DNA of 64,000 nucleotides from an uncultured Gammaproteobacteria bacterium (GCA_963773065.1 CAVYZN010000017.1:1-64000); one strand, 5' to 3'; positions 1 through 43,480 are shown, counted from the stretch's first letter. A program made the numbers and translations. Notes: generated by a model not told the origin, from the letters alone.

Positions 1-139
1 CCGTATTTCTCACCGGGATAGGCACTCCCCCAAAACACACGGTTGTCTATTGAGTCGGCACCCTTGCCATTACCTCAAAGCCTTATGTGTATTAGTCGCG
101 ACATAAGCAGAGAGACAGTGTCAGATTTAAGTGCGCTGA

Positions 140-225
140 CCGTCTCACAACGGCCACAAACCGTCATTTACGGAGTGACAACATTAGGGTGCTGATCGTC
201 TGGCTCTGGCGATAAAGTGGACGTT
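140..225. repeat. Pair of ~28-bp quasi-palindromic module-boundary sites
   Basis: GTC-TCACAA-CGGCCA-CAAACC-GTCATT (142-168) and GTC-TGGCTC-TGGCGAT-AAAGTG-GACGTT (198-225); the first shares CGGCCACAAAC with the site at 10345. Confidence 0.6.
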
Positions 226-330
226 CAGCCTTCGAGTAGTAGTTGGCTCGCGAAATTGCTGTCCCGTGCAATCCTGGCCCCCACGTGCTAGGTGCGCGAG
301 GGGATTTTGGCACTCAAGTTTTAATGCTGA

Positions 331-1959
331 TCACGGCCTCAATTCCCAATCCTTGAGTTTCTTCGCCGCCGCGCCAAACGGGCCAAGCTGGTACACGGCC
401 GCGCCCGCCGGCGAGAAGGTGAACGGCTCAAACGGTTCGGCGAGCATCTTGTCGAGGTATTCCCGCGGGGCCACACCGGTGGTGACGTGCGGATTGAAAT
501 GTTCGCCGAAGCTTTTTGAACAAACGCCGACACATAATCGATCATTTGCACGTCGAGCGCGGAATCGTCGTGCGCAGCAGTGAACGCACCGATCGGCCCA
601 GTTTCCACCGTGAACGGGGCCACAGCGGCAATGATGTCCGCTTGCAACTTGAGCAGTACGGGCGTCGGTTTCGCGACAATGCCCGCGACGCCAAGCTCCC
701 CGGCCGGGATGTAATAGTATTTGACGGCGTCCAGTTTCAGGCGCGCTGACGCCGGCGAGCACCTTGCCGACCGCGGCATAGACCTTGTCGAGGTCGGCGG
801 TGCGGACGAAACACTGGAGCATCGTGATGTGCGGACGGTGCGTCCCATCCAGGGCGAACCCTTTCGGGTAGATCTTGAGCAGGCGGACGTTGTTGGCTTC
901 GGCATGCCGGAGCATGGTGGTGTCCGGCTCCAGCAGGACGTCGATGGCGGTGACTGGAGGCTGCCCGACCGCGAAGACCTGTTTCCAATCGTCCTTCATG
1001 CTGACGACAGTCCAGCCATCCCTCTTCGCTTGCTCGTATAGTGGCTGTGTGAAGGCACCCAGCTTGACGTCCGGCAAACCTTGCGCCGGACCGTAGGCGT
1101 ATTCGCGGGCCGCTCATCGTGCAACACCAACAGCTCGAACCGCGCCCCACCGCCTCCCTGCGTGTATTCCAACATCTCCTTGTCGCCATTGGAATTGCCA
1201 AACGCCATGACAGGCCGGCGGCCGATGTGCTGGTTGATGCCGACGGGCTTGTCGCCCTTGTCGTCATTGAAATTCAGTTCCGGCAGACGCACGAGAACGG
1301 GCTTGCCGTCGCGCATTTCAAACTTCGTCCTGACGCTGCTGCCGACAACCTGTTCCGGCGGGATGCCGTACACCCGCTCCGCCCACGGGCGCATGAACTC
1401 GATCCCGCCGCCGGAGACGATGAAGTTCTTGAAACCGTGCCCGCGCAGGTACGCGAGCAATTCGAGCATCGGCTGATACACCATCTCGGTGTAGGGGCTG
1501 CTTGGTCACCGGATGTTTCGCGGTCGCGAGCCATCCTTGACGATCTGCTCGAATTCCACGGTGGTCATGCCCGTGTGCGTGGCCATGAAGAGTTCCAGGA
1601 TCGCGCGGTCGCCGCCGGAGAGCGCGGCGTTCACATCGCCCTTGAGCAGCGAGGCGAACGGTTCCTTGGTCGTCCATTCGGGATGCTGCGGCACGAGCGC
1701 TTTCACGCGGTCGAGGGCGAAGTACAATTGAACGGGCAGCGGCTGCTCGCACCAGAGCGTGCCGTCGTTGTCGAAGATGGCAATGCGCTCGGGGATCGGG
1801 CACGAAGTTCGGCGAGCCGGGTGTGGTGACCTGCTCGACGAAGGCAATGATCGCCTTCTTCGGCGCCGTGTCGTTCCACGAGGCGAGCGGGTCAGTGGCG
1901 CAGGCCGCGTTTGTGAGCAGCAGCAGCGGCGAGCAGAATCTTCACCGTAAGCTCTTCAT
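331..1959 (-). CDS. Secreted HAD-family hydrolase (non-specific acid phosphatase-like) fused to a C-terminal 2H-phosphoesterase-like domain; split by several frameshifts
   Basis: ORF pieces 1506-1847 (FDNDGTLW), 996-1484 (IVSGGG, AFGNSNGD), 331-1077/339-905 (PHITML, PHVTTG HxT motifs); N-terminus DPLASWND near 1890. Confidence 0.75.
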
Positions 1960-2027
1960 CGATTCGGCCGTCCTTGATGCGCACTCGCGGCGGGGCGCTC
2001 CGGCCGACGCGCCCCGCCGCGACCGCG

Positions 2028-3635
2028 CTACTTCGACCCGCCGCCTTCGCTCATCTTCCGAAGAACTGCATCCAGGTTGAAGCTGTCCGCCTTCTGGCGC
2101 TGCGGGAATTCCTTGAAGGTCGCCAGGAACTGGCCCACGTAGGCCTGCGCGGGCACCAGCAGGAAAGCATGATCGAGCAACCAGTCCCAGTACGTGTTCG
2201 ACGTGATGTCTGCGCGCTCGTAGGGGTCCATCCGGAGGTTGAACATCTTCGGCAGCCGCAAGGAGGTGAACGGGTTCGCCCAGACGAACATCGTTCCGGG
2301 GGTCTGCTGCTCCATGAACACGAGCTTCCAGTTGTCATAGCGCATGGCGACCAGTTGCTGCTCGTCGCTGAAGTACAGGAACGATTCCCGCGGGCTCTTC
2401 GCGACCTGCCCGGTCAGGTAGGGGACGAGATTGTCGCCGTCGAGGTGCACCTTGTAGGTCATGTCGCCGACCTTGTAGCCCTTGAGCAGCTTCTCTTTCA
2501 CTCGCGTGTCGCCGGCCATGGCCAGCAGCGTCGGCAGCCAGTCGTGGTGGGCGACCATCTCGTTGGACACCTGCCCGGTTTGATCTTGCCCGGCCAGCGG
2601 ACCATGGCCGGCACCCGGTAGGCGCCTTCCCAGTTCGAGTTCTTCTCGTTGCGGAACGGTGTCATCGCTCCGTCCGGCCAGCGAGTTCATGTGCGGACCG
2701 TTGTCGGTGCTGTACATAACGAAGGTGTTGTTCGCGATGCCCAGGTCATCCAGCACCTTGAGGACCGTGCCGACGTTCTTGTCGTGGTCGATCATGGTGT
2801 CGTGGTACGGGCTCTGCCAGCGCCCCGACTGGCCGATGCTCTCCGGCTTGGTGTGGGTGCGGAAGTGCATGTGGGTGAAGTTCACCCAGACAAAGGCGGG
2901 CTTGCCGGCCTTGTTTTGCCGCTTGATGAAGTCCACGGCCCGGTCGGCGACGTCGTCGTCGATGGTCTCCATCCGCTTCTTGGTCAGCGGACCGGTGTCC
3001 TTGCATACCTGCTTGCCGACCTTGCCGAAGCGCGGATCGACGGTCGGGTCGTCCGTGGCCGAGGCCTTGCAGTCCAGTACGCCGCGCGGGCCGAACTTGG
3101 CGAGGAAACCCGGATCTTTCGGATAGTCGGGCAGTTCCGGCTCTTCCTTGGCGTTGAGGTGGTACAGGCTGCCGTAGAACTCGTCGAAGCCGTGCACCGT
3201 GGGCAGGTATTCGTTACGGTCGCCCAGGTGATTCTTGCCGAACTGGCCGGTGGCATAGCCTTGCGCCTTCAACAGTTCGGCAATCGTCGGGTCTTCCTTT
3301 TGCAGCCCTACTGCCGCGCCCGGCAAGCCAACCTTGGTCAAGCCAGTGCGCAAGCCGGATTGGCCGGTAATGAACGACGCCCGGCCGGCGGTGCAGCTCT
3401 GCTCGGCGTAGTAGTCGGTGAACATCATGCCTTCCTTGGCGACTCGGTCGATATTGGGCGTCTGGTAGCCCATCACGCCGTGCGAGTAGGCGCTGACATT
3501 GGACTGGCCGATGTCATCGCCCCAGATGATGACGATGTTGGGCTTGCTGGCCGCGACGGCCTGCGCCGGCAAAGCAGGGGCCAGCAGCACCAAGCAGGTA
3601 GTCACCAGACAGAGTAGAAATTTATTTTTTTCCAT
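2028..3635 (-). CDS. Arylsulfatase with signal peptide; short out-of-frame stretch near 2580-2680
   Basis: [19 protein letters not shown] (formylglycine motif), GKNHLG, STDNG. Confidence 0.92.
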
Positions 3636-3735
3636 TGCATTTCTCTCACTATTGAAATTGATGGTGAACACCGCATTCACGGGTCCAATCTCTTTACGAG
3701 AGTGATATTAATCCTATTTGGCAGAAATAAAAAAT

Positions 3736-5117
3736 GGGTCATCGCGTAATCGTGTGGGTAAAAACTGGCATTGCAGTGTAGCCAGACCCTGTAATTACCG
3801 GCATAAACAGCATTTGCTGAGGCACAGGAATTTAGCATGATAACCCGATGGCTACCTCACGCAAACGACCCCGCCGATTGGCGGATGCATACACCTTCCC
3901 CGGTTTCCGTCCCCAGGCCACGGTGCGCGGTGTGTTCGGAGACCCGCAGGCCCGTGTCGTCACGCTTACACGGCGGTCAAAAAAACGGTTTGCAGCGTCT
4001 GTGGGCGTGCGCATTCGGGTTGGTACGATCGCAAAGTCCGACGGGTACGCGACCTGTCCTGCGGCGACACCCGTGTGTACCTCGACCTGGAGATCCGGCG
4101 TGTGGCGTGCCGGCGCTGCGGCAAGGTGAAGCGCGAGCGGTTGGACTTTCTGGCCGACAATCCGCTGTACACGAAGCGGTTCGCCCATTACGTAGGCCGG
4201 CGCTGCGCCAGCGCCACGATCAAAGCGGTGGCCAAGGAACTGCGCCTGGACTGGCACACGGTCAAGGAACTGGACAAGCAATACATGCGGTCGCAACTGG
4301 CCCGCGCGGGCACGCCGGGCCCCAAGGCGATCGGCATCGATGAGATCTCGATTCGCAAGGGACACACCTACCGCATCGTGGTCAGCGATCTCATCCGTTG
4401 CCGGCCGATCTGGTTCGGTGGCACGGACCGTTCCGAGGCGAGCATGGCGCAGTTTTATGACTGGCTCGGAGAAAAGAAGGCCAAACGCATCCGCCTGGCG
4501 GTGATGGACATGTGGAAACCGTTTCGCAATGTGGCTCAGGAACGCGCCCCGCAGGCGGCGATCCTGTTCGACAAGTTCCATGTGATGCGCCACCTGGGCA
4601 AGGCTCTGGATCAGGTACGCAAGAGCGAATATGCCCGCCTCAGCGGCAAAGAGCGGCGCTACATCAAGGGGCAGAAGTACACGCTGCTCTCGCGCAAGGA
4701 AAACCTGAGCCTGGAAGGCCGCACGGCGCTGAAGGCCCTGCTGGCGGCCAACCGGCGCCTCAACACCGCCTATCTGCTCAAGGAATCCTTTGGCCAGCTC
4801 TGGGACTACGAACGCGAGGGCTGGGCACGGCGCTTCTTCGACAACTGGCGTGCCAGCCTCAAGTGGCAACGCCCGAAGCCTTACGAGAAGTTCGCTGAGA
4901 TGATCGAGCGTCATTGGGATGGAATCGCCGCCTACTGCAAGCCCAAGAACAAAGTCTCGCTCGGCTTCGTCGAGGGACTGAACAACAAAATCCGCGTCAT
5001 CCAGCGCCGCGCATACGGGCTGCGCGATGAAGAGTATCTGCGACTCAAGATACTGACGTGCATGCTGCCGATCCTCTAAAATGACCGAAAAGCACCCACA
5101 CGATTACGCGAAGAGCC
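3736..5117 (+). mobile_element. ISL3-family IS, copy 1
   Basis: 23-bp terminal IRs GGGTCATCGCGTAATCGTGTGGG / CCCACACGATTACGCGAAGAGCC; 8-bp TSD TAAAAAAT at 3728-3735 and 5118-5125. Confidence 0.95.
3848..5079 (+). CDS. ISL3 transposase expressed across a -1 frameshift at A7 (3979-3985)
   Basis: IGIDEIS, AVMDMW, DKFHV, VEGLNNKIRVIQRRAYG motifs; zinc-finger CxxC in the -1 frame. Confidence 0.9.
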
Positions 5118-5218
5118 TAAAAAATATTGAGTGCAAAAAAAGGGAAGTGGTCAGATACATCATCACATACAGACGAACAAGTCAGGGAAGTAACATTTCC
5201 GTTATCCAGTGCCCATAT

Positions 5219-5295
5219 TTGTCCGCGATCGGGGGAGAAGCGGTCAGTCGATAAACTTGATGCTGAATGTCGCCTTGGGGTCGGAATTTGCCTTT
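5219..5295. repeat. Pair of module-boundary sites
   Basis: GTC-CGCGAT-CGGGGGA-GAAGCG-GTC (5221) and AATGTC-GCCTTG-GGGTCG-GAATTT-GCC (5266); the latter matches 15300 at 15/18 nt. Confidence 0.6.
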
Positions 5296-5379
5296 TGGAC
5301 ACTACCTGTCAGATAAAGTCAGAACCAGTACACCTTATGTCGTTCCGCCGCCGCCCGGTGAGAAATGCGGGCGAGGGAG

Positions 5380-5946
5380 TCAGTTCGGCGGCGCGACCAC
5401 GGCAAAACTCAGCGCGGCCAGGACAGCGCCGATGAGCGCTCCGGCCAGCACATCGGTCGGGTAGTGCAGCCCCAGGATCATGCGCGAGAGCGCCACCAAC
5501 AGGGTAAACGGCACCAGCACCCAGGCGAGCACCGGCAGGTAAACGCAGGCAATGCTGCTGAAACAAACGGCATGGAGGGTGTGGCCGGAGGGAAAACTGT
5601 ATCGATCGAGCGGCGGCATGGCGCAGGAGATCAGCTCGCCATGCATCGCGTACGGGCGCTCCCGGCCGATGCGTGACTTGAGCATGGTGTAAACGCCCAG
5701 TCCCGCCAGCGATGCCGCCGCCATGTGCGTGGCGGCGACCAGCCCGTCGAACCCCGCAACGACCGGCAGCATCGCCATGAGTACATACCAGAAGATGCCG
5801 TCACCCAGCCGGCTGGCGAGGCGAAACAGCGAGCAGAAGCGGGGAGACCGGCTGTAGCCGTTGAACAGGGCACAGAGCGCGGTGTCAACATCCGCGCATC
5901 GTCGCGCGACGGTTTCCGGCTTTTCGGCGAACGCGGTAGTAGGCAT
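5380..5946 (-). CDS. PAP2-family phosphatase
   Basis: KxxxxRERP, SFPSGH, SRMILGLHYPTD motifs. Confidence 0.92.
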   Translation of the reverse strand: MPTTAFAEKPETVARRCADVDTALCALFNGYSRSPRFCSLFRLASRLGDGIFWYVLMAMLPVVAGFDGLVAATHMAAASLAGLGVYTMLKSRIGRERPYAMHGELISCAMPPLDRYSFPSGHTLHAVCFSSIACVYLPVLAWVLVPFTLLVALSRMILGLHYPTDVLAGALIGAVLAALSFAVVAPPN

Positions 5947-6156
5947 AGCCTGAGGATCGCATGATGACTACGCGATCCACTGTGCCGGTGAAATACGACG
6001 CTTCGATTAGCCCGCCTTTAGGATTCCATTAGAAAAGCGGAGGCCGCCATGTGCTTGTCAGGCATCATGATACTGCAACATCATTAGAGGACAATTCCGG
6101 CATCGGGAACTTTGCCTGATACTCACACCTGTCACCATCAAGGGACGGATTACCGA

Positions 6157-7163
6157 ATGAGTGACACAACCCTGGCGATCGTCACCGATGCCGGCTGCCG
6201 CAGGTCAACGGGGTCGTCAACACGCTGATGCAGACGCGTGCCGCTCTGGCGGGGCGCGGCTACCGGGTAATCCTGCTGACGCCGCAGGAACACACCACCC
6301 TGCCCTGCCCGAGCTATCCGGAAATCCGGCTTGCCCTGCGCCCGTCCCGCAAGGTTCATGCGCTGCTTGACGGGCTTCGGCCCGACCACATACACATCGC
6401 AACGGAAGGACCACTGGGGCTCTCCGCCCGCGCCTACTGCCGGCGTAAGCACCTCGCCTTCACCACCTCCTACCACACGCAGTTTCCCGAATACCTGCGC
6501 AGTCGCCTGCCAATACCGCTGGCCGCCTCCTATAGCTTCCTGCGCCGGTTCCACAAGGCGGCGGCGCGCACCATGGTCGCCACCCCCAGCCAGGAAAAGC
6601 TGCTGCGACAGTGGCGCTTCGGCAATCTCGTGCGCTGGACGCGCGGCGTCGACACCGACCTGTTCCGTCCGGACGAACGCGCGCCACTCGATGTTGTACG
6701 TCCGCTCTTCACCTGCATCGGTCGCGTCGCGGTGGAAAAAAACCTCGAGGCCTTCCTGTCGCTCAAGCTGCCGGGAACGAAATGCGTCATCGGCGATGGC
6801 CCGCAGCTCGAGGAGCTGAAACGCCGCTATCCCCGGGTGCTTTTCCCGGGTTACAAATTCGGCGCCGACCTCGCCCGGCACCTCGCCGCCGCCGATGTGT
6901 TCGTCTTCCCCAGTCGCACCGACACGTTCGGGCTGGTCATGCTCGAGGCGATGGCGTGCGGCGTACCCGTCGCCGCGTTTCCGGTCACCGGGCCGATCGA
7001 CGTGGTCACGCATGGCGTGACCGGCATACTGGACCAGGATCTGCGCCAGGCGGCGCTCGCCGCACTCAAACTCGACCGGGCGCGTTGCCGCGCGGAGGCG
7101 CTCAAGCATACCTGGGCGGAATCCAGCCGGCAGTTCAGCGACAACCTGGTCCCGGCCTGCTGA
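6157..7163 (+). CDS. Glycosyltransferase family 4 (1-nt frameshift near 6193)
   Basis: LAIVTDA..PQVNGVV N-terminus upstream of ORF 6228; GRVAVEKN, DTFGLVMLEAMACG. Confidence 0.88.
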
Positions 7164-7186
7164 CGGAGGCTCCGCGGCGTCAGGCG

Positions 7187-8323
7187 TCAGCCGCGGCCCG
7201 CTACCTCATCCGGCGCGGGATTGACGGGCGCCGCGTCCTCGCCAGGCACTGTTCCGGCGTCGAGCTCGAGCCAGCCGAGCAGCAGCTCGTAGCCGAGCAC
7301 CAGGATGACCGAACCGATGAACAGGCCGATGATGCCCGAGGTCAGGAAGCCGCCGATCGCGCCGACGAAAATCACCGCCATCGGCACGTTGACGCCACGT
7401 CCCAGCAGTAGGGGTTTGAGTACATTGTCCAGCGTCCCGATCAGGATGCTCCAGATCAGGAAAATCACCGCCGTGGCAGTGTCGGCGTTGGCGAATACAT
7501 AGATCAGCACCGGTATGGTGATGGGGAAGATGCCGATCTGGACCACGGCCAGCAGCAGACACAGGAAGGCCCACAGACCCGCCGCCGGCACGCCCACGGC
7601 GAGGAAGCCGAGCCCGGCCAGGATCGACTGGATGAGGGCGACGCCCAGTATGCCGCGGGCGACGCTGCGGATGGTCGCGCTCGACAGCTCGATGAACTCG
7701 GCCCCGTGCGCTTCGGCGAGACGCTGGGCGATGGCGTAGCTGGTCCGCTTGCCGGCCTCGCCGTGCCGGAGTATCACACCGGCGATGATGATCGCCACGA
7801 TGAACTGTAGGATGCCGAGACCGGCCCCGGCGGCGGCGGACAGCAGCCATTTGCCGAGCACCTTGAACTGTGGTCCGATTTCGCCGAGCGCCCCCGCGAG
7901 ATTGACGGATGCCAGACGCCAGAACTTGTCCAGGGGCTTGCCGATCAGCGGCCAGTTCGCGACGCTCTCCGGGGGCGCCGGAATGTTCAGCGCGCCTTCA
8001 GACAGATCCTTGGCCAGCCCGGTCACCCCCGTGACCAGGGTATCCGACAGCATGAAGGTAGGCGTAATCAGGAGAACCAGCGCCAGTACGACAAACAGCG
8101 TCGCCGCCAGCGTGCGCCGGTCGCCGAGCGCCCGCTGGACCCACTGGTAATTGGGATAGACCGCGACGGCGATGATCACGCCCCACACGACCGGGATGAT
8201 GAAAGGCCGAATGATCTGGAAACAATACAGCACGAGGACGGCAATCAGGCCGAGGCGTATCGTCGCCTCGACCGTCCTGTTCAGAAACGCCCTGTCATTC
8301 ACGGCGGAAACGGAAGTATTCAT
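7187..8323 (-). CDS. AI-2E family transporter
   Basis: Multi-TM protein; DNVLKPLLLGRG and GAIGG..GIIGLFIG motifs. Confidence 0.88.
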   Translation of the reverse strand: MNTSVSAVNDRAFLNRTVEATIRLGLIAVLVLYCFQIIRPFIIPVVWGVIIAVAVYPNYQWVQRALGDRRTLAATLFVVLALVLLITPTFMLSDTLVTGVTGLAKDLSEGALNIPAPPESVANWPLIGKPLDKFWRLASVNLAGALGEIGPQFKVLGKWLLSAAAGAGLGILQFIVAIIIAGVILRHGEAGKRTSYAIAQRLAEAHGAEFIELSSATIRSVARGILGVALIQSILAGLGFLAVGVPAAGLWAFLCLLLAVVQIGIFPITIPVLIYVFANADTATAVIFLIWSILIGTLDNVLKPLLLGRGVNVPMAVIFVGAIGGFLTSGIIGLFIGSVILVLGYELLLGWLELDAGTVPGEDAAPVNPAPDEVAGRG

Positions 8324-8451
8324 GAAGAGGAGCCCTTTGACTGTGATCGTTGGCGCTGACAAGGTGTACAGTAAAAATAAACGCATCCCGACACAAGCGC
8401 AGGGCGAGTGTCCCGTCGAACGGGCGGTTCATACCTGGAATCCGGGGGGAA

Positions 8452-8525
8452 TGGAGCGGGTGATGGGAATCGAACCCACGTTAGTAGCTTGGGAAGCTAC
8501 AGTTCTACCATTGAACTACACCCGC
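8452..8525 (-). tRNA. tRNA-Gly (CCC)
   Basis: GCGGGTGTAGTTCAATGGTAGAACTGTAGCTTCCCAAGCTACTAACGTGGGTTCGATTCCCATCACCCGCTCCA: cloverleaf, CCC anticodon, CCA end. Confidence 0.97.
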
Positions 8526-8742
8526 TTAATTCTTGGGGTACAAGAGTTTACCGAATAGCCGGGGTGAATGTCACAACCTCACGGTAGAGGAATGGTGCCT
8601 GGGGTAAAAAGCGACCACACAAAGCAACTCAAGGTATCCCGCCTAATGGTGTAGATATTCATCACGTATCTTAATGGACACTGTTCGAAAGAGTATTACC
8701 GAGTGAATCTGAAATTTGGTGATTCCAGCAGTTGAATCGCCT
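8488..8742 (-). repeat. Left arm of ~250-bp inverted repeat (tRNA promoter + tRNA 5' half)
   Basis: Reverse complement aligns with 15390-15641; about 20 differences by eye. Confidence 0.95.
8545..8574 (-). promoter_or_regulatory. Putative sigma70 promoter of tRNA-Gly
   Basis: Minus strand GTGACA-N18-TAAACT about 20 nt upstream of the tRNA; also present in the right arm (15556-15584). Confidence 0.55.
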
Positions 8743-8746
8743 AAGC

Positions 8747-8836
8747 AAGTTATTTCGATCCGACCCGGGCATTCGCGGAAGCACAGTACCATAGTTGTTG
8801 GAGTTCGGACATGACGGCTGTCGGCCACTTTCGGAC
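8747..8836. repeat. Pair of module-boundary sites at the inner edge of the left IR arm
   Basis: AAG-TTATTT-CGATCC-GACCCG-GGCATT and ATGAC-GGCTGT-CGGCCA-CTTTCG-GAC (20/26 identical to 10334). Confidence 0.65.
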
Positions 8837-8841
8837 TACAG

Positions 8842-8934
8842 TTATAACAATCAGGATCACCGGGCGGGAAGTTGAAGTAGCCGTGTGAAGCGAGCCCACC
8901 CCGTCTCCCGCTTCGGTGCATCTGATAGTTATGC
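8842..8934 (-). mobile_element. attC-like integron cassette site
   Basis: Minus strand GCATAAC-TATCAG-ATGCACCGAAGCGGGA...TCCCGCCCGGTGATCCTGATT-GTTATAA: R''/R' cores, paired L boxes with an extrahelical G, just after the stop of the YaaC-like ORF. Confidence 0.8.
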
Positions 8935-8957
8935 CATGGTTAGCCGGCAATGCCTTG

Positions 8958-10014
8958 TTATTCGATTGGTGGTTGGGTGGATCGTGGTGGCTTAGAATTC
9001 TGTTCTTTGATCACATCGGAAAGCAGTTCCGTCACCAATTCAGGATAAGAATATTCCACATATTGCTGCGCGCGATTCATCGTTGGCCACATGGTATCTC
9101 CTTTATCACCTTGGATAAGTGAAATCCAATGTGTAGGATAATACCGAACCAACATTCCCAAAATATACGAGACCATGTAGGTAATGCAGAGCTGGGAATA
9201 ACGAGCACCGCCCGAAAACGGCTCAGCGAGGTGCAAAGAAGGAATCGATCCAAATATTTTGTGCACGTATGTGTGAATAAACATTGGAAGTTCTTTAGTG
9301 AAAGTCTCCACGCCACATATAAGGGTGCACCAAAGACCTTCGCTGGTTGCGGTGTAACCGAATCCTTCATAAACAGCCCTGAATTGCGAAAACTGCTCCT
9401 CCCTGACCGTTGCTCGGAATCCCGCATCTTTGTTGAAGGTCATACGACTGATCTCGGCATATCTCGTAACATTAGAGACGTTCGCATAATCCATTTGTAG
9501 ATCGGGAATCCGAGAAAATAAGTCGCCTACTGAAAATTCTACGCCGGGCTTGGGGATATCATAGCAAAGATGTCAATCAACCCCGGCCGAATTGACATGA
9601 ATAGGAACCCGTTTTTTGTATGCGCGACAAAATCTGAAAATAAACCGGTACGCGTTCGTATTTTTAGTTCGCCTAATTGCTTCAATCCCACGGCAGTATC
9701 GCCCGACTAATATTGCCCCAACCGACTGTTTCTATGCCGTGACCGGCAGTCAATCCCTCTTCTCCGCCGCTGACCTTAAACAGCAATAGAAGGGCGCGAC
9801 TTAAACAGGCGACGCCGTAAAAAGTAAGAAGCGGGCGTACTGAATAGTTTGAGTTGCTCGCATTCCTGAAGAACTCTCGCGCCTGTTTCGCAGCGGCGTT
9901 TATCTCACGCGCTCGACGTACGTTTAGTTTCCTTGAATGTATTCGCTCGAACCACTGTTGCGTTATGTCTCGGCTCTCAAGTGAAAGTAATTGCTGCCAG
10001 ATTTCCTGATTCAA
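8958..10014 (-). CDS. YaaC-like protein (frameshifted: 9682-10014 plus 8958-9494)
   Basis: QAREFF..A....VRPLLTFYG, HGI and SYILGMLVRYYPTHW motifs resemble the YaaC family. Confidence 0.7.
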
Positions 10015-10207
10015 TGTTCTTTATGCTCAAAAGGTTTCAGCGAGGAATGGGTTCTTCTTCTACATAATAACAATTAGAGGGCCTAGAAATCAGGTTTGTA
10101 TTATTACTTTTAGGTCATGTTTGTATTCAGGCTTATATTAAAATCAACATGATGTTGTCATGTTACATAGCCTATTGGTTTTTCAAACCTTGCCTTTGAA
10201 AATATTG

Positions 10208-10361
10208 AATGACTGGATCGGTGCGACTCCGCCAATTAGCCGATCCGAATAAAAGAGCCGGCTGAATTTCGAGTTAGAGCCGTTACACGACATAACCATG
10301 ACCAAAGAAACCCTGCTGATGTGGGGTCCCTGGCTGGCGACTGTCGGCCACAAACGGACGT
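10208..10361. repeat. Two module-boundary sites
   Basis: AATGACTGGATCGGTGCGACTCCGCCAATT (10208) and CTGGCGACTGTCGGCCACAAACGGACGT (10334). Confidence 0.6.
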
Positions 10362-10664
10362 GTACCAACGCTGGCCGAAGCCATAGTCTATGTTGTCACC
10401 CATCACCTCAACCAACTGTACTAAATAAAGGTTATTTACATACAAATATTTCACTAATACGGCGCAGGGCTATATGAGCAAACCCTATTGCAATAAGAAG
10501 AGTCATGTCCTAATTCTCCACACTTCGCAACGCATGAGTAGTTGGGTGTGGGTGATCTATCCTGCTGACCGCTAGATGACTGGGGTTGATATGTACTGTA
10601 AGAATCATTAGACATAGATTCCCGATGCTGATGCACTAGATGATGAACTCCATTTATGCATATA

Positions 10665-10988
10665 TCACGAGGCATAGTTTTGATATCGATACACCTGCCA
10701 CTCAGCACTTTTAATGTTAACAACCATAGCTTGCTGATAACCGGTGTATCCGCCAAATGCATTTTTGGCATTGACCTCAACGCAAGCACCCATTCCATCA
10801 ACCAAGGTCATATTCCCAAATTTCGCAGAATCTGGGTCTTTTAATGCACTAAGAACAGCGCGAACAAGTTCACTCTGTTGATCTGTATTAGGAACTGACA
10901 AATTTAATGGTGGCAAAGGTGGAGAAATGGCACAACCCGTTAAGCACATCGCTGTAACAGCTATAACGATCAACTGTCGAAATTGCAT
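10665..10988 (-). CDS. Small lipoprotein of unknown function
   Basis: Lipobox LTGC; LKDPDSAKF...CVEVNAKNAFGGYTG motif. Confidence 0.75.
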   Translation of the reverse strand: MQFRQLIVIAVTAMCLTGCAISPPLPPLNLSVPNTDQQSELVRAVLSALKDPDSAKFGNMTLVDGMGACVEVNAKNAFGGYTGYQQAMVVNIKSAEWQVYRYQNYAS

Positions 10989-11007
10989 GGTGTACCTCTC
11001 GTCAAGA

Positions 11008-11036
11008 AATGACCACTTCCGGTCATTCGACATGCC
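11008..11036. repeat. Single module-boundary site
   Basis: AATGAC-CACTTC-CGGTCA-TTCGAC-ATG, just upstream of the lipoprotein start. Confidence 0.45.
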
Positions 11037-11082
11037 AAAATTGAGTTACACCTAACAAGTAGAGTCACCTGCAATGGTTTTT

Positions 11083-11608
11083 CTAATTGTCACGTATCAC
11101 ATCCGACATTGACAACTTGTCCTTGTTCCTCTTTCTCCAGAATGTTTTACATTTCTGACACTGGAAGCCAATGAAGTTTTCATCAATAGCGGTTACCTGA
11201 CCTGTACCGCCACACCTCAAACACGTTGACGTAATTTTCCGACTGGTACCTGCATCCGCCCCCATTAAACCGCCAAGTATCGCACAAGTGGACCGAATGC
11301 ACTCCCTATGACGATTCCCCCTAATGAGCCTGCTGCTATGTCAACTATATTGTTTTTTGTTCTCGTAGGTTTGCCATAATATGGTTTGCAATGATGCTGT
11401 TTTCTTACCCTTTCTATAAAACGAACATTTTTTGCTGCAGGCCTATTATTTTTTCCGGTGCCAATTTCGAAGGATACTTTATCTCCATTTTGTATGACTT
11501 CTTCTGATTTATATTCGCTTACGTAAAAAACAGGTCATTAGCCATGTCAGCAACTAAGATAAAGCCGTAACCCTTATCATTCGAAAACCACTTAACAGTG
11601 CCTTCCAT
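11083..11608 (-). CDS. Cold-shock domain + glycine zipper + zinc-ribbon protein (frameshifted)
   Basis: Manual translation MEGTVKWFSNDKGYGFI..., GSLGGIVIGS, C-terminal CLRC...CQKC. Confidence 0.7.
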
Positions 11609-12093
11609 AAGAGCTTAGACGAAATGCAGTCTAGTGCAGCGCCTTTTAACTGTTTTCCATTTCAGGTTTGCTTCCCCAATATTTTACTGCTTATATGCAG
11701 CATAACCAAGGCCTGCACCTCCCGCGATACCAACAATGACCGGCCATAAAGGAGCTGAAACTAGGCCTACTGAAACACCCACTCCTCCCAAAGCTTGTGA
11801 GCCTATTATGGTAACGGACCCTGCAGCTACTGTACTGCCAGCCGCAGCTCCAATGCTTGCACCTATAGCAGCGCTACCTGTACTAGCCGAAGCATCAATA
11901 GTATCTTCAGGTAGTTTTTTCAGCTCATCGATGAAGCCTTGAAGTCCATCGATGAAGCCTTGAAGTTCTTTCATAGATTTTGCAACGATTTTTACTGAAA
12001 TGGTATTGAGCTTAATTACCTTGTCTTTGAATTCGGACAGTGCGGACAAAACTTTTGCGTCATTTATACACCTCCGGGCACCATCAACAATTA

Positions 12094-13475
12094 GGGTCAT
12101 CGCGTAATCGTGTGGGTAAAAACTGGCATTGCAGTGTGGCCAGACCCTGTAATTACCGGCATAAACAGCATTTGCTGAGGCACAGGAATTTGCATGATAA
12201 CCCGATGGCTACCTCACGCAAACGACCCCGCCGATTGGCGGATGCATACACCTTCCCCGGTTTCCGTCCCCAGGCCACGGTGCGCGGTGTGTTCGGAGAC
12301 CCGCAGGCCCGTGTCGTCACGCTTACACGGCGGTCAAAAAAACGGTTTGCAGCGTCTGTGGGCGTGCGCATTCGGGTTGGTACGATCGCAAAGTCCGACG
12401 GGTACGCGACCTGTCCTGCGGCGACACCCGTGTGTACCTCGACCTGGAGATCCGGCGTGTGGCGTGCCGGCGCTGCGGCAAGGTGAAGCGCGAGCGGTTG
12501 GACTTTCTGGCCGACAATCCGCTGTACACGAAGCGGTTCGCCCATTACGTAGGCCGGCGCTGCGCCAGCGCCACGATCAAAGCGGTGGCCAAGGAACTGC
12601 GCCTGGACTGGCACACGGTCAAGGAACTGGACAAGCAATACATGCGGTCGCAACTGGCCCGCGCGGGCACGCCGGGCCCCAAGGCGATCGGCATCGATGA
12701 GATCTCGATTCGCAAGGGACACACCTACCGCATCGTGGTCAGCGATCTCATCCGTTGCCGGCCGATCTGGTTCGGTGGCACGGACCGTTCCGAGGCGAGC
12801 ATGGCGCAGTTTTATGACTGGCTCGGAGAAAAGAAGGCCAAACGCATCCGCCTGGCGGTGATGGACATGTGGAAACCGTTTCGCAATGTGGCTCAGGAAC
12901 GCGCCCCGCAGGCGGCGATCCTGCTCGACAAGTTCCATGTGATGCGCCACCTGGGCAAGGCTCTGGATCAGGTACGCAAGAGCGAATATGCCCGCCTCAG
13001 CGGCAAAGAGCGGCGCTACATCAAGGGGCAGAAGTACACGCTGCTCTCGCGCAAGGAAAACCTGAGCCTGGAAGGCCGCACGGCGCTGAAGGCCCTGCTG
13101 GCGGCCAACCGGCGCCTCAACAACCGCCTATCTGCTCAAGGAATCCTTTGGCCAGCTCTGGGACTACGAACGCGAGGGCTGGGCACGGCGCTTCTTCGAC
13201 AACTGGCGTGCCAGCCTCAAGTGGCAACGCCCGAAGCCTTACGAGAAGTTCGCTGAGATGATCGAGCGTCATTGGGATGGAATCGCCGCCTACTGCAAGC
13301 CCAAGAACAAAGTCTCGCTCGGCTTCGTCGAGGGACTGAACAACAAAATCCGCGTCATCCAGCGCCGCGCATACGGGCTGCGCGATGAAGAGTATCTGCG
13401 ACTCAAGATACTGACGTGCATGCTGCCGATCCTCTAAAATGACCCAAAAGCACCCACACGATTACGCGAAGAGCC
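12094..13475 (+). mobile_element. ISL3-family IS, copy 2
   Basis: Near-identical to copy 1; TSD AACAATTA at 12086-12093 and 13476-13483. Confidence 0.95.
12205..13437 (+). CDS. ISL3 transposase copy 2 (A7 at 12336-12342; extra A near 13122)
   Basis: Same protein as copy 1 up to the 1-nt insertion. Confidence 0.85.
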
Positions 13476-14048
13476 AACAATTAAGGCAACACCCACTAAT
13501 AATACTGATCCATTTACAACAAGATTATTCATGTCTACAGCAGGGGTGGTTACATCGGCTGTCGCATTGTGAACTAAATCCCCTGCGGTATACCCCGCTA
13601 AAGCTAATACAGCGGTTGCACCACCAATTAAAGAGCGGTATTCCAATTGCACTACCCATGCCAGCTACACCAATTGAGCCTAATATGTAACCAGCTACAG
13701 CTCCTGCCCCAGCACCACGTAGCCTGCTATAGATTCTGTATTAAATCCTGATTCAGTATTAACTGCAGATTCAACACCTGGGCCACCAAGTTCTGTACCA
13801 ACGAATTCCGACCCCATTTCTATAACACCGCTATGAACTCCCCATGCAACAAGGCCTGCGCCAACAGCCATTTCACCAACCCCAACTGCCCACTGGTTTT
13901 CAGAGCACCATTTCTTAACGTACTTCAAGGCATCAGAAAAACTTTTTGATTCATTATCTGATAGTTCAAATTCTTTAGACACTGGCTACCCCTCCTTATT
14001 GCATGTGGCTTTTGATAAGACACTTGAAAAAGTCAGCTTTATATAGTG

Positions 14049-14131
14049 CCTTGCAACTTGGGTCGGCTCCCGCCGTCTAAAATCTTATATAAGCGTCTCG
14101 TGTAGGACAGGGATCGGCCAACTCCGGACGT
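14049..14131. repeat. Pair of module-boundary sites with CTTATATAAGC in the spacer
   Basis: ...CAACTT-GGGTCG-GCTCCC-GCCGT and GAC-AGGGAT-CGGCCA-ACTCCG-GACGT. Confidence 0.6.
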
Positions 14132-14240
14132 ACAGCTCAAAAGAAAACGGCGATCTGAAGGCGTCGGCACTTCATGATCAGATTCTTGCCTCTAATCCTT
14201 TTAAAAACGGTAACCGCCCTTGCGCTCTGACAATTCAGTG

Positions 14241-15147
14241 CTAGTCGGGGCCACGGACCGGCCAGACCTTAAAAGAGATAGTAATCATGATCGGCCTCCA
14301 AGTGATCCTTGTCTGAGATTCGCAATGCACTATCGGCCGCCCCCAATGAAACAACCCATGCATCAGCACCGCCATAGACATTGCTCGTGGATGACCAATA
14401 GCGTGGATCCGCATTGATATTGTTGAATGGATAGTTCAAAGGTAAGGCAGGATAAGACTTGCCAAAATCTATCAGACTTAGCAGTTCCCTGACGTTAGCC
14501 AATCTCCAGTCAGTTTTACCTGCACCGCAATTCGGATACGTCCCATCGTTGATACCAGCCACAAAGTCCAAGGCATGTTGCCAAGTGACTAAGCCATCCC
14601 CTAGGGTATTCTCGTTGTCAAACGCTGGATAACTCGTAGCTACCGTGGATTCTAGCCAGATAAGTCCAGTCAGATTATCAACGACCGTACCGTCCTCCTT
14701 GTCAGTGAACCTTGGTTTGGGCCAAGGGATGCCTTTTTGATACTCCCCATCTTGGCCTGTACCGTACAGTCGATTTGAGCCCCAACTTGGTCATAACAAG
14801 TAGTCTGCCCTGTTTGTGGTACTGGCGCAGGTAGACAACATTGCAGTCTCAAACGTCGCTGTTAGAGACGTTGGCGAAGTCAACTTGATCTTACATGTAA
14901 GCTCGGTGCCGACACATGCACCATTCCAGCCAAGGAAACTAGTATTGGGATTTGCAGTAGCCGTTAGGGTGATTGTTGAACTCTTGTTGTAGCTTTCGAC
15001 ACAGTCAGACGGACATATGATGCCCGCAGGATCGCTGACCACAACCCCGTCACCTTGCACCGTGACTGTAAGGGATATTTGGGGGGGTGCGGCGAATACA
15101 TTCGCCGCAAAAAGGGTAGACAGAAAAATAAGGAGACTCGCTTTCAT
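14241..15147 (-). CDS. Secreted DUF1566/Lcl-C-type domain protein with N-terminal InlB B-repeat-like domain (frameshifted)
   Basis: Signal peptide; ITLTATA..FLGWNGAC; PVPQTGQTTCY; DNLTGLIW; DWRLANVRELLSL; YWSST; VWPVRG. Confidence 0.82.
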
Positions 15148-15300
15148 CGTTATCCTCCAATTTTAGTTATTCCAGCCTGACTTATTCTTGTTGCTCTGCT
15201 CATAGGGGGAAACCTTACTACATTTCACCAGACTTCCTGTTGATGTTAATCATGGAAGAGGCTGATTTCCTATTCTGGACAATGAGCCAGGTGTTCGCGA

Positions 15301-15388
15301 AAGTCGCTTTAGGGTCGTGCTTTCTCATTCAGTCACCGCTTATATAAGCTGTAATTAAACGGCAAATTAGGGATCGAAACCAGTCGTT
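15301..15388. repeat. Pair of module-boundary sites abutting the right IR arm, GCTTATATAAGC in the spacer
   Basis: AAGTC-GCTTTA-GGGTCG-TGCTTT-CTCATT and AACGGC-AAATTA-GGGATCG-AAACCA-GTCGTT. Confidence 0.65.
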
Positions 15389-15389
15389 G

Positions 15390-15641
15390 AGGCGATTCAA
15401 CTGCTGGAATCACCAAATTTCAGATTCACTCGGTAATACTCTTTCGAACAGTGTCCATTAAGATACGTGGTGAATATCTACACCATCAGGCGGAGTGCCC
15501 TTAGTTGCTTTGTGTGGTCGTTTCTTGCCCCAGACACCATTCCTACCGTCGGGTGGTGACATTCACCCAGCGATTCGGTAAACTCTTGTACTCCAAGAAT
15601 TAAGCGGGTGTAGTTCAATGGTAGAACTGTAGCTTCCCAAG
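15390..15641 (+). repeat. Right arm of ~250-bp inverted repeat
   Basis: Matches the reverse complement of 8488-8742. Confidence 0.95.
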
Positions 15642-39344: not shown

Positions 39345-40097
39345 TTACTGGGGCGCTGCAGGCAGCCGGGAATAGGGATTCTCACCGTAGGGTGGTCTGG
39401 CCAACGGGCCGGATTGCGGTCCGCCGGGATACGCACCCGGAAGTTCATCGGAACGATCGAACATTTCCTTGTAGTGGTCATTGATGTAGTTGTGTCGCTC
39501 CTGCGGTGTCATGTCTTCCATGGCCGAGAGGAATGACGCCAGCCGGGCCTTCCGTTCCTCTGCCTCATTGCGCAGATCCTCTTGCCGTTTGATCATGGCC
39601 TCCTTGCGATCAATGGCCATTTGCAGCAGTTCCTGATGATGATCGACAAGGTAATCACGATCCGAGGCGATGCCTTGACGCTGTTCATCATAATGTTTGG
39701 CCATTTGTTCAAGACGCTCCTCGCGTTGCTTCAAATAAGCCTCGACTTTTTCCGCGTAGGCTTTCTCCCTCGCTTCAAAACGCCTGCGCGCATCTTCAAG
39801 TTGTTTCAGGGTTTCCAGCTTTCTGGTGTCATACAACTCTCGATAGGCCTTGATGCGCTGCTCCATGTCTGCTTCCAGGTTTTCTGACGGCATGTCTGCA
39901 ACAGTGCCGGGCGGTGTGTATGACTCCGGCGCTGGCACGGCGGCTGGCGATGGTGGCGCAGAGACCGGCGGTGCGGCCGGGATGGATGCCGCGGGTACCG
40001 CTTCGGCAGATGGAGGGGGTGGTACCTCTTCAGCCAAGGCTTGTTGAAGGAAAAAGACACAGGATAAAAACGTCACTACCAGCATTCTTACTAACAT
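39345..40097 (-). CDS. Secreted Pro-rich / coiled-coil hypothetical protein
   Basis: Signal peptide, PAAP repeats, charged helical core. Confidence 0.7.
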   Translation of the reverse strand: MLVRMLVVTFLSCVFFLQQALAEEVPPPPSAEAVPAASIPAAPPVSAPPSPAAVPAPESYTPPGTVADMPSENLEADMEQRIKAYRELYDTRKLETLKQLEDARRRFEAREKAYAEKVEAYLKQREERLEQMAKHYDEQRQGIASDRDYLVDHHQELLQMAIDRKEAMIKRQEDLRNEAEERKARLASFLSAMEDMTPQERHNYINDHYKEMFDRSDELPGAYPGGPQSGPLARPPYGENPYSRLPAAPQ

Positions 40098-41758: not shown

Positions 41759-43480
41759 TTACCGGATCTTCACCTTGATCAATTCTTCACCATCCGGGTC
41801 GGTGACATGCACGGCACAGGCGATGCAGGGATCGAAGCTGTGGATGGTGCGCAATATCTCGACCGGCGCCTTGGCGTCATGCAGGGTATGGTTATCCTGC
41901 AACGCCGCCTCATAGGCTCCCGGTTGACCACTGGGATCGCGTGGTCCAGCATTCCAGGTGCTGGGAACAACCGCCTGATAGTTGGCGATCTTGCCGTCCT
42001 CGATTACGATCCAGTGCGCCAGCGCACCGCGCGGGGCCTCCATGAAACCCACCCCCCTGGCCTGCTGTGGCCAGGTGGAGGGATCCCAGAGGACATCGTT
42101 GAAGGTCTTGGTATCACCGGCCTTGATATTGGCGATCAGGTTGTCATACCAAACCTGTATTTTATCGGCGATGATCTTGGTCTCCAGGGTGCGGGCCGCG
42201 GTTCTGCCCAGCGTCGAGAACAACGCCTTCACGGGTATATCGAGTTTCTTCAGCGTCATGTTGACCAGATCCTTGGTCTGTTCATGGCCGCGCGCATACA
42301 ACATCAGCACCCGCGCCAGCGGACCGACTTCCATGGCGCGCCCCTTCCAGCGCGGCGCCTTGAGCCAGGAATAGGACTGCTCGACATCGAGGTGATCATA
42401 GGGTGGTTTCGGGCCGGTGTAGTTGAGTTCGGTTTCGCCATCGTAGGGGTGCAGGCCCTGATCCTTGCCGGCGCTGTAGTTGTACCAGGAATGGGAGACG
42501 TATTCCTGGATTTGATCGGCCGCGTGCATATCGACATCCTGTATTGAGGTAAGGTCGCGGTTGAGAATGACGCCTGAGGGGATCAGGTAGCTCGATGGAT
42601 CATCCATGCCCTTCTCCGGAAAATCCCCATAGGTCATGAAATTGCCCAGACCTTCACCGCGCCCGCCCCAGTCCTTGTAAAAGCCGGCAATGGCAAGCGT
42701 ATCGGGCACGTAGACCTGATCGACGAAGTCCCGCATCTTGTGAATGATGTCCTGGACGAGCGACAGCCGTTCGGCATTGATGGCGGAATCCGAATTGAGG
42801 TCAATCGGTGAAGGCACACCGCCGACCACGAAATTGGGATGCGGGTTCTTGCCGCCGAAGATGGTATGCAGCCGGGCGACATCGCGCTGCCAGGCCAGGG
42901 CCTCGAGATAATGAGCGACCGCCATCAGATTCGCCTCTGGCGGCAGTTTGTAGGCCGGATGCCCCCAGTAGGCCTTGGCAAAGATCCCCAGTTGGCCGGC
43001 GTCGACGAAATCCTTCAGCTTCTTCTTCGTATCGGCAAAATAGCCGGGAGAAGACTTGGGGTAGTTGCTCAGTGACTGCGCCAGTTCCGAGGTTGCCTTG
43101 GGGTCTGCCGACAGCCCGGACACCACGTCGACCCAGTCCAGGGCGTGCAGGTGATAGAAGTGCATCACGTGGTCGTGCACATACTGGGCCGCGATCATCA
43201 GATTGCGGATCAACTGGGCGTTGGGCGGTATCTGATAGTTGAGCGCATTTTCCACGGCGCGCACCGAGGCGATGCCATGCACCAGGGTGCAGACGCCGCA
43301 GATACGCTGCGCGAAGGCCCAGGCATCGCGCGGATCGCGCCCGCGCAGGATGATCTCGATGCCGCGCACCATGGTTCCGGAGGAGTACGCCTGCGCGATA
43401 CGATCGCCGTCCATTTGCGCCTCGATGCGCAGATGGCCTTCGATACGGGTAATGGGGTCAACGACGACACGTTCATTCAT
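41759..43480 (-). CDS. hynL: [NiFe]-hydrogenase large subunit (Hyn type)
   Basis: DPITRIEGH, RICGVC, SFDPCIACAVH. Confidence 0.95.
   Translation of the reverse strand: MNERVVVDPITRIEGHLRIEAQMDGDRIAQAYSSGTMVRGIEIILRGRDPRDAWAFAQRICGVCTLVHGIASVRAVENALNYQIPPNAQLIRNLMIAAQYVHDHVMHFYHLHALDWVDVVSGLSADPKATSELAQSLSNYPKSSPGYFADTKKKLKDFVDAGQLGIFAKAYWGHPAYKLPPEANLMAVAHYLEALAWQRDVARLHTIFGGKNPHPNFVVGGVPSPIDLNSDSAINAERLSLVQDIIHKMRDFVDQVYVPDTLAIAGFYKDWGGRGEGLGNFMTYGDFPEKGMDDPSSYLIPSGVILNRDLTSIQDVDMHAADQIQEYVSHSWYNYSAGKDQGLHPYDGETELNYTGPKPPYDHLDVEQSYSWLKAPRWKGRAMEVGPLARVLMLYARGHEQTKDLVNMTLKKLDIPVKALFSTLGRTAARTLETKIIADKIQVWYDNLIANIKAGDTKTFNDVLWDPSTWPQQARGVGFMEAPRGALAHWIVIEDGKIANYQAVVPSTWNAGPRDPSGQPGAYEAALQDNHTLHDAKAPVEILRTIHSFDPCIACAVHVTDPDGEELIKVKIR

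Follow-up and report, generated by a model that had tools for sequence, protein, structure and literature searches.

The window analysed here, 64,000 nt in length, covers the start of contig C17 (its first 64 kb) in the draft genome of an uncultured bacterium (G000; 3.84 Mb, 33 contigs, 60% GC). The nearest named relatives of one of its core proteins are Gammaproteobacteria near Chromatiales, with 63–66% identity. An original prediction had marked about 13 related non-coding sites between positions 140 and 15,388 of the window as a family of paired ~28-bp sites at cargo borders, candidate recombinase sites of a non-integron gene-cassette system. The analysis identifies here two intact copies of a composite intergenic repeat specific to the lineage (further, the element), along with one or two decayed ones. 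Below, genomes are denoted by G, contigs by C, and loci by L numbers.

Bases 1–8400 have a core-like composition (55–68% GC) and encode a sulfatase, PAP2, a GT4 glycosyltransferase, and an AI-2E transporter, all kept in congeners. To the right lies a lower-GC accessory island (Table 1) in which YaaC is broken into two pieces and Lcl_C/DUF1566 into two or three, and one open reading frame (ORF) is interrupted by an insertion sequence (IS). As the YaaC-like gene (8958–10014) and the Lcl_C/InlB-repeat gene (14269–15147) are each split, the island cargo is decaying. Among the cargo labels given originally, the sulfatase, YaaC, and Lcl_C/DUF1566 are recovered by Pfam, the latter two as split genes, while HAD and CSD are not. 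Apart from repeats, the island cargo has no DNA homologue in G001, G002, G003, or G017; a search of metagenome contigs for the lipoprotein gene yielded 20 loci at no more than 49% identity, none of them with the element.

Table 1. Features of the window. Sites are named by their positions in the original prediction; bit scores and E-values are those of the profile scan, except where a half-site matrix is indicated.
Feature	Coordinates	Strand	Score	Remarks
Complete copy of the composite element	14056..14161	+	87.7 bits, E 1.8e-26	left arm is site 14049, right arm is site 14104
Second copy, variant with a different centre	10196..10333	+	45.9 bits, E 1.3e-13	left arm is site 10208
Degenerate copy (sites 15301/15359)	15270..15385	none	8.9 bits, E 0.034 (15270–15361)	marginal; best shuffle 7.0 bits
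Possible fragment, left box and left arm (site 5266)	5255..5284	+	7.2 bits, E 0.11	edge of shuffle range; spacer between ISL3 copy and PAP2
Right-arm-like stretch (site 8811)	8798..8845	none	2.0 bits (8798–8836); half-site 9.6 bits	alignment A6; alone not significant
Short perfect palindrome (site 11008)	10998..11027	none	4.8 bits	7-nt arms, 6-nt loop; within shuffle range
Left arm of 285-nt inverted repeat	8488..8772	-		5' 38 nt of tRNA-Gly(CCC) and ~247 nt upstream, including a promoter-like site; site 8747 at inner end
Right arm of inverted repeat	15368..15641	+		second, truncated tRNA-Gly 5' half and upstream region, pointing away from the island; 90–96% complementary to left arm
Lower-GC accessory island	8773..15367	none		41–49% GC outside IS vs 60% in the genome; decayed genes, all on the minus strand (Pfam)
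ISL3-family IS, copy 1	3736..5117	+		own 8-bp target duplication
ISL3-family IS, copy 2	12094..13475	+		own 8-bp target duplication; interrupts the ORF beginning at 12100

The sequences quoted in the original prediction are indeed present where it placed them. We searched the window with a profile hidden Markov model built from 47 aligned copies of the element from 13 genomes (alignment A3), leaving all speed filters off; the best scores in 20 dinucleotide shuffles, taken as a control, range from 1.5 to 7.0 bits. Only three or four of the 13 sites exceed chance in this comparison, and the 13 do not make up one family of equivalent sites. The complete copy has the 3' end of the split Lcl_C/DUF1566 gene on one side and the start of a Gly-zipper-like ORF on the other, and shows 87% identity with G000:C8:282184-282269 and 86% with G017:C9:212587-212664. 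Relatives of the second copy are found at G000:C16:76279-76407, C21:51331-51434, and C14:37870-38004; site 10334 is at or just past its right end and by itself scores 0.5 bits, within the shuffle range. In the degenerate copy, the left box, the start of the left arm, and the central palindrome are recognisable (alignment A6), and the right arm continues into the inverted repeat, whose inner end is at 15368. Site 140 has a match at 150–179 with 3.6 bits, again within the shuffle range, and no profile match is seen for sites 195, 5219, and 8747 in the unfiltered scan. The palindrome at site 11008, about 10 nt upstream of the ribosome-binding site of the lipoprotein gene, is most likely a hairpin between two genes and not a member of the family.

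Gapless half-site matrices derived from A3 assign 26.2 and 19.6 bits to the arms at 14110 and 14047, but only 9.6–12.8 bits to sites 140, 8811, 11008, and 5266, compared to 16.0 and 13.1 bits for matches in core genes (at 52771 and 57461, respectively); the value for site 5266 is 12.8 bits. As short arm-like matches are thus equally frequent in core genes, half-sites alone are not significant. Two inverted arms around a 6–7-nt spacer in a 28-bp site, the geometry initially proposed, are not the unit, which is a composite of 110–147 nt. Doublets about 50–65 bp apart, such as 14049/14104, correspond to the two arms, left and right, of a single element, and the spacing is its centre. Sites 8747 and 15359 are alike because both are at the inner ends of the 285-nt inverted repeat (8488-8772 vs 15368-15641). 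The remaining flagged sites are chance matches, scraps, or part of this unrelated inverted repeat. The absence of sites from the core part of the window holds for the real element, with no profile match above 3.3 bits between 15.4 and 64 kb.

The element emerged from a short-word BLAST search of intergenic stretches against the genome, where the stretches around 14104 and 10230 recur, followed by iterated nhmmer, which gave eight to nine copies. All 47 copies from 13 genomes align as one dyad-symmetric composite of about 110–147 nt. Its left half consists of a 7-nt outer box, a 6-nt spacer, and a conserved 15-nt arm; the centre is formed by about 33 conserved nucleotides with a 10-nt palindrome and exists in three variants; the right half consists of a 16-nt arm, which is an imperfect inverted copy of the 15-nt arm, a 6-nt spacer, and the inverted outer box, in many copies followed by a short hairpin and a conserved end motif. 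Solo left halves and solo right halves occur as well, and one right half is joined to different left modules at C8:278595 and C8:290636.

The arms pair in 74.5% of cells (with the pairing drawn by hand), compared to 28–47% with the partners slid by 1–3 columns; at the same time, this value equals the mean of column shuffles (74.1 ± 0.7%) and is reached by 165 of 500 of them. The outer boxes pair in just 56.9% of cells, with no covariation, and the RNAalifold consensus fold of the aligned copies contains 0 pairs. Single-strand folds of the window copy are no better than those of shuffles (z = 0.02 and -0.05); over eight folds, z ranges from 0.02 to -3.4, the lowest values being due to flanking hairpins. 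Hence, the conserved feature is the primary sequence of an asymmetric dyad, not a fold. Conservation of sequence without a fold suggests recognition by a protein as duplex DNA, rather than as a folded strand.

Two further candidates were considered and rejected. Rfam (15) scans, of the window at gathering level and of three element loci at E ≤ 1, return tRNA and group II introns only, with the element absent, which speaks against a structured RNA family. A small peptide is disfavoured by the left box, which appears to contain a start codon in only part of the copies, as read by eye from the profile consensus.

A search of 41 relatives with 14045–14140 of the window as the query finds the element in 13 of them, including 12 of 24 genomes of the same family, and in none of 16 other families of the class; order-wide, it is present in 18 of 54 genomes (one family, five of six genera). 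G000 has 16 matches at E ≤ 0.01 (eight long, covering at least 100 model positions, and eight partial), and the flank GC content is below the genome mean at 15 of these 16. In the relatives, copies are often several, co-oriented, and 0.8–5 kb apart; per genome there are 3–19 copies. Copies within a genome are about 75–90% alike, while those of G000 and G017 are 86% identical, compared to 67% for flanking core DNA.

That the sites lie between unrelated accessory genes is, for the true copies, confirmed by composition and by Pfam neighbours, the genes being part of horizontally exchanged islands of lower GC: 31 downstream and 35 upstream neighbours have no Pfam family in common, each family occurs at most twice, and no common neighbour gene or leader role was found. 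In G017, two islands with the element measure 12.8 and 12.4 kb; the core genes on either side of them are separated by only 0.06–0.8 kb in G014, G022, G024, and G061. The element is absent both from the borders of these two islands and from the empty sites of the congeners. In G051, a close relative of G017, a contig ends exactly at the island border. Over 52 copies, 46 have a neighbouring ORF on the right side, and in 35 of these the 3' end of that ORF faces the element; the left-side ORF starts towards it in 31 of 50, and co-directional contexts show an orientation bias of 17 to 3. Among the 44 copies with two neighbours, 16 are between convergent genes and eight between divergent ones.

The expectation that the same cargo should be bounded by the same sites elsewhere is borne out by one positive case, a 742-nt cargo block of G017:C8 (L022 12112-12853), with 89% identity to its counterpart in G064:C1 and 98% to that in G053:C316. 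In G017 and G064, element copies are present on both sides of the block, at different chromosomal loci; in all three genomes the block starts at the same point, just past the end motif of the element, while the upstream element variants differ widely. At a second cargo block, G000:C8 and G001:C47 have a joint of this kind as well. Blocks with 88–98% identity thus abut different element variants at the same relative position, in three genomes for one block and in two for the other. The 20-kb end of G000:C8 (274–294 kb) is a mosaic, with pieces matching different congener contigs at 74–92% identity. The predicted enrichment at synteny breakpoints does not reach significance: in 38 inter-genome blocks, 10 of 139 block ends are within 60 nt of an element, compared to 6.1 ± 2.4 expected (P = 0.088), and many shared blocks have an element adjoining them in just one genome.

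Group II introns (3' domains, RF00029, and maturase ORFs) abut element copies in G003, at L020 343-491, L033 497-645, and L032 2047-2196. The insertion is in the right arm in L020 and L033, which are near-duplicates, and at the mirror position of the left arm in L032; introns at equivalent points of both arms suggest that the intron homes to the arm sequence. G001:C27:2800-5800 (L026) is a near-perfect palindrome of about 3 kb with arms 87–100% complementary and an element on each; it may be an assembly artefact and is not used as evidence.

The statement that the sites are not attC is corroborated by the boxes, by the folding and covariation analyses, by the surroundings of intI genes, and by an attC profile. 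In the 47 aligned copies, the outer boxes have a consensus other than RYYYAAC / GTTRRRY, the classical boxes being seen in attC arrays beside intI in the relatives. There are 0 element matches at E ≤ 0.1 in 16 loci around integrase genes; the attC profile has 27 matches in the integrase loci, one weak match in all of G000, and one in the element loci. The absence of the element from the former and the near absence of attC from the latter imply that the element is not the attC of this lineage. Integron integrases over the curated cut-off are found in 15 of 41 relatives and in 25 of 54 genomes of the order, with none in G000. At E ≤ 1e-50, TIGR02249 is present in 14 of 17 genomes with the element and in 13 of 36 without it (Fisher P = 0.003, with no correction for kinship or genome quality).

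Classical chromosomal integrons with 6–10 detected attC sites occur in relatives (G017:C2:79000-98999, L124; G014:C3, L126; G022:C6, L123). Integrase genes with stop codons are seen in G017, G019, G012, and as the second copy in G022, and many integrase contigs end less than 2 kb from the gene.

No tyrosine recombinase was found adjoining any element array. G017, with at least 11 copies of the element, has five PF00589 matches, of which three are strong: two Xer-like genes free of stop codons, and an integron integrase that contains one. As for the proposed recombinase in trans, any enzyme would have to act in this way, given that none is adjacent; no partner enzyme was identified. Three adjacent tyrosine recombinase genes, the arrangement of 'recombinase in trio' elements, are present at G002:C90:36812-39215, G002:C18:1892-4307, G001:C140:35187-37619, and in G003 on C526 and C544, with no such set in G000. 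An AT-rich module directly to the left of the second element copy (window 10065–10217) recurs in G002:C9, G002:C12, G001:C39, and G000:C6, and also at G001:C129:189-241, just upstream of the G001 integron integrase gene without a stop codon.

The element is best read as a previously undescribed lineage-specific mosaic intergenic repeat, as its non-coding, intergenic, multi-copy, and lineage-restricted character and the occurrence of its modules alone and in different combinations indicate; abstracts in the literature offered no description of it. We hold with about even confidence that it is a non-autonomous repeat similar to bacterial interspersed mosaic elements (BIME), enterobacterial repetitive intergenic consensus sequences (ERIC), and neisserial intergenic mosaic elements (NIME), with a passive or unknown role at the joints. 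The dyad-symmetric, double-stranded form would be bound by a protein, and the repeat would travel with accessory gene modules and probably serve as a joint where these are swapped, either by recombination between copies or by an unlinked enzyme. A role in recombination is possible, albeit unproven, and the evidence does not so far establish gene capture at the repeat.

Several points weigh against this interpretation. No protein partner, transposase, or recombinase was identified, so that the mechanism is conjectural; 3–19 copies per genome is low for repeats of the REP (repetitive extragenic palindrome)/BIME type; and the modest similarity of copies within a genome does not point to recent spread. 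A site-specific system would account for the orientation bias and the sharp joints no less well than a passive repeat, with the caveat that the ORFs behind the orientation counts are crude (greedy longest, at least 90 amino acids), and the association with integrases does not follow from a passive repeat.

Among the alternatives, the one that survives best is a non-integron gene-cassette site, where a recombinase encoded elsewhere would cut and join at a fixed point, and units of cargo plus element would be captured, shuffled, and lost. It agrees with the co-oriented arrays at 0.8–5 kb spacing; with the element following a gene 3' end in 35 of 46 cases; with the heterogeneous, cassette-typical cargo (GST, SnoaL, Dabb, Imm53, Sel1, Lcl_C); with the 742-nt block, flanked on both sides at different loci and joined to three variants at one position, and the second such joint; with the dyad-symmetric architecture with several boxes and the introns at equivalent points of both arms; and with the link to integrase-carrying genomes. 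However, no recombinase is beside any array, the enrichment of block ends at elements is not significant, island borders and empty sites lack the element, many shared blocks touch it in one genome only, and half elements, which conservative site-specific exchange should not yield, are common. We thus consider such a site unlikely.

The same low probability is given to integron-independent exchange of modules at a fixed point at the end of a ~147-nt site by an enzyme encoded elsewhere, for which the candidates are the host Xer pair or the integron integrase of the lineage, acting on a second, non-attC class of sites. Such exchange would account for the co-oriented arrays, the same cargo with different variants in three genomes, the half-sites, and the integrase link. 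The sharp joints in three genomes make it directly testable, and the classical integrons of the same lineage are available for comparison.

A self-spreading miniature transposable element (MITE, REPIN, or a derivative of IS91 ends), surviving best in accessory DNA, is rather improbable. In its favour, the element has imperfect inverted arms, is intergenic, is present in low to moderate copy number, and is depleted between divergent genes (8 of 44); in addition, two copies are 67 and 224 nt upstream of IS91-family transposase gene fragments (G012:C14 and G001:C27). On the other hand, no target duplication is evident by eye in the flanks of the 47 aligned copies, the true ends of the element being uncertain; there are no near-identical copies; and no precise empty site was found. 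Nor was a full-length partner element detected, as no transposase is consistently adjacent and only two of 31 downstream neighbours are IS91-type fragments. Y1 transposase genes (PF01797) occur both in element-positive genomes and in element-free G014, with none beside the element in G000, and the Y2/IS91 genes of G000 and G017 are not near elements; REPIN/RAYT and IS91 ends are not supported.

Somewhat less probable still is a cis-regulatory module, that is, a promoter, operator, insulator, or silencer binding site ahead of island genes. The left-side ORF starting towards the element in 31 of 50 cases, Lcl_C and Gly-zipper genes following it both in the window and in G017, and dyad symmetry, suitable for a dimeric DNA-binding protein, are consistent with regulation. 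However, a promoter scan of the window copies yielded no sigma-70-like site; the next start codon may be as near as 15 nt or as far as 600 nt; the downstream genes have no common family; 147 nt at 75–90% identity across genera far exceeds the needs of an operator; and 16 of 44 two-neighbour copies are between convergent genes.

Finally, atypical attC, with the arrays being CALINs (clusters of attC without an integrase) served by the integron integrases of the lineage, would explain the length, post-gene position, co-orientation, imperfect dyad symmetry with conserved unpaired positions, and excess of TIGR02249 in element-positive genomes, but is highly improbable given the element-free integrase loci with their classical attC, the poorly pairing outer boxes (57% of cells) without covariation, the lack of a consensus fold, and the lack of an integrase over the cut-off in G000.

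Several other repeats are present in the window. The sole tRNA, tRNA-Gly(CCC), is at 8452–8525 on the minus strand; the lower-GC island is bracketed by the inverted repeat of its 5' part, and only the left copy continues into a whole tRNA. Further inverted pairs of the same tRNA half, about 4.6–4.9 kb apart, are found at G000:C14:38044-38152 / 42916-43025 and G002:C34:35057-35179 / 39706-39842; G002:C34 also contains two direct 38-nt copies of the tRNA half. From integration at a tRNA one would expect the 3' part to be repeated directly, not the 5' part in inverted form. The promoter-like site of the tRNA is duplicated, with 15556–15584 (+) mirroring 8545–8574 (-), and the right copy points out of the island towards 15642 onwards.

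A repeat of about 40 nt with a small hairpin, at 5333–5372 and 1–59 of the window, has copies on C1, C11, C14, C21, C26, C27, and C32, and contig C17 itself starts inside such a copy. Another repeat, of about 110–125 nt (15159–15283), is located between the start of the Lcl_C gene and the decayed element, with copies at G000:C17:112034-112140 and 118430-118544, and in G002 and G003. The two ISL3-family copies of the window are nearly identical, and further copies are found at the contig ends of C2, C11, and C12.

The closest known mosaic repeats are the BIME/REP of enterobacteria, ERIC, and the neisserial mosaic and Correia elements (PMC3184786, PMC2817692, PMC2229807, PMC3898611). Unlike these, the element has far fewer copies per genome and occupies accessory islands rather than the whole core genome; it has no predicted stable hairpin, no RAYT or other partner was found for it in the analysed genomes, and across genera it is more conserved than core genes. 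Similar to them, it is an intergenic imperfect palindrome of about 100–150 nt. As in mosaic repeats, its modules recombine in different combinations with sharp joints, it mostly follows gene 3' ends, and it is confined to one lineage. Should it be no more than such a repeat, it would still help to mark accessory islands in one gammaproteobacterial order, and would urge caution in taking loose palindromic layouts for recombinase sites.

From attC and CALIN arrays (PMC4889954 / 10.1101/030866, PMC8618304) the element differs by the absence of RYYYAAC/GTTRRRY boxes, of a conserved fold, and of covariation, and by never being beside intI in the 16 loci; the true attC arrays of the relatives form a separate sequence family. 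The likeness is in the size range, the position after cargo genes, the co-oriented arrays of unrelated small genes, the imperfect dyad, and the occurrence in genomes that also have integron integrases.

The layout of dif/pdif sites (two 11-bp arms and a 6-bp spacer, 28 bp in total) is not seen here, the 24–28-nt half-sites alone being not significant; the element, with its 110–147 nt, is found in chromosomal islands and not on plasmids. The dif modules are described as flanked by sites in alternating orientation, whereas the element copies in an array are co-oriented. Still, the dif (pdif) modules of Acinetobacter plasmids, moved by XerC/XerD (PMC6449649, PMC13141974, PMC7399989), are similar in that unrelated cargo lies between short repeated sites and the recombinase is encoded elsewhere; in G017, the only tyrosine recombinases without stop codons look Xer-like. 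If the element were a true exchange joint, it would be, next to integrons and dif modules, a second route to arrays of unrelated genes.

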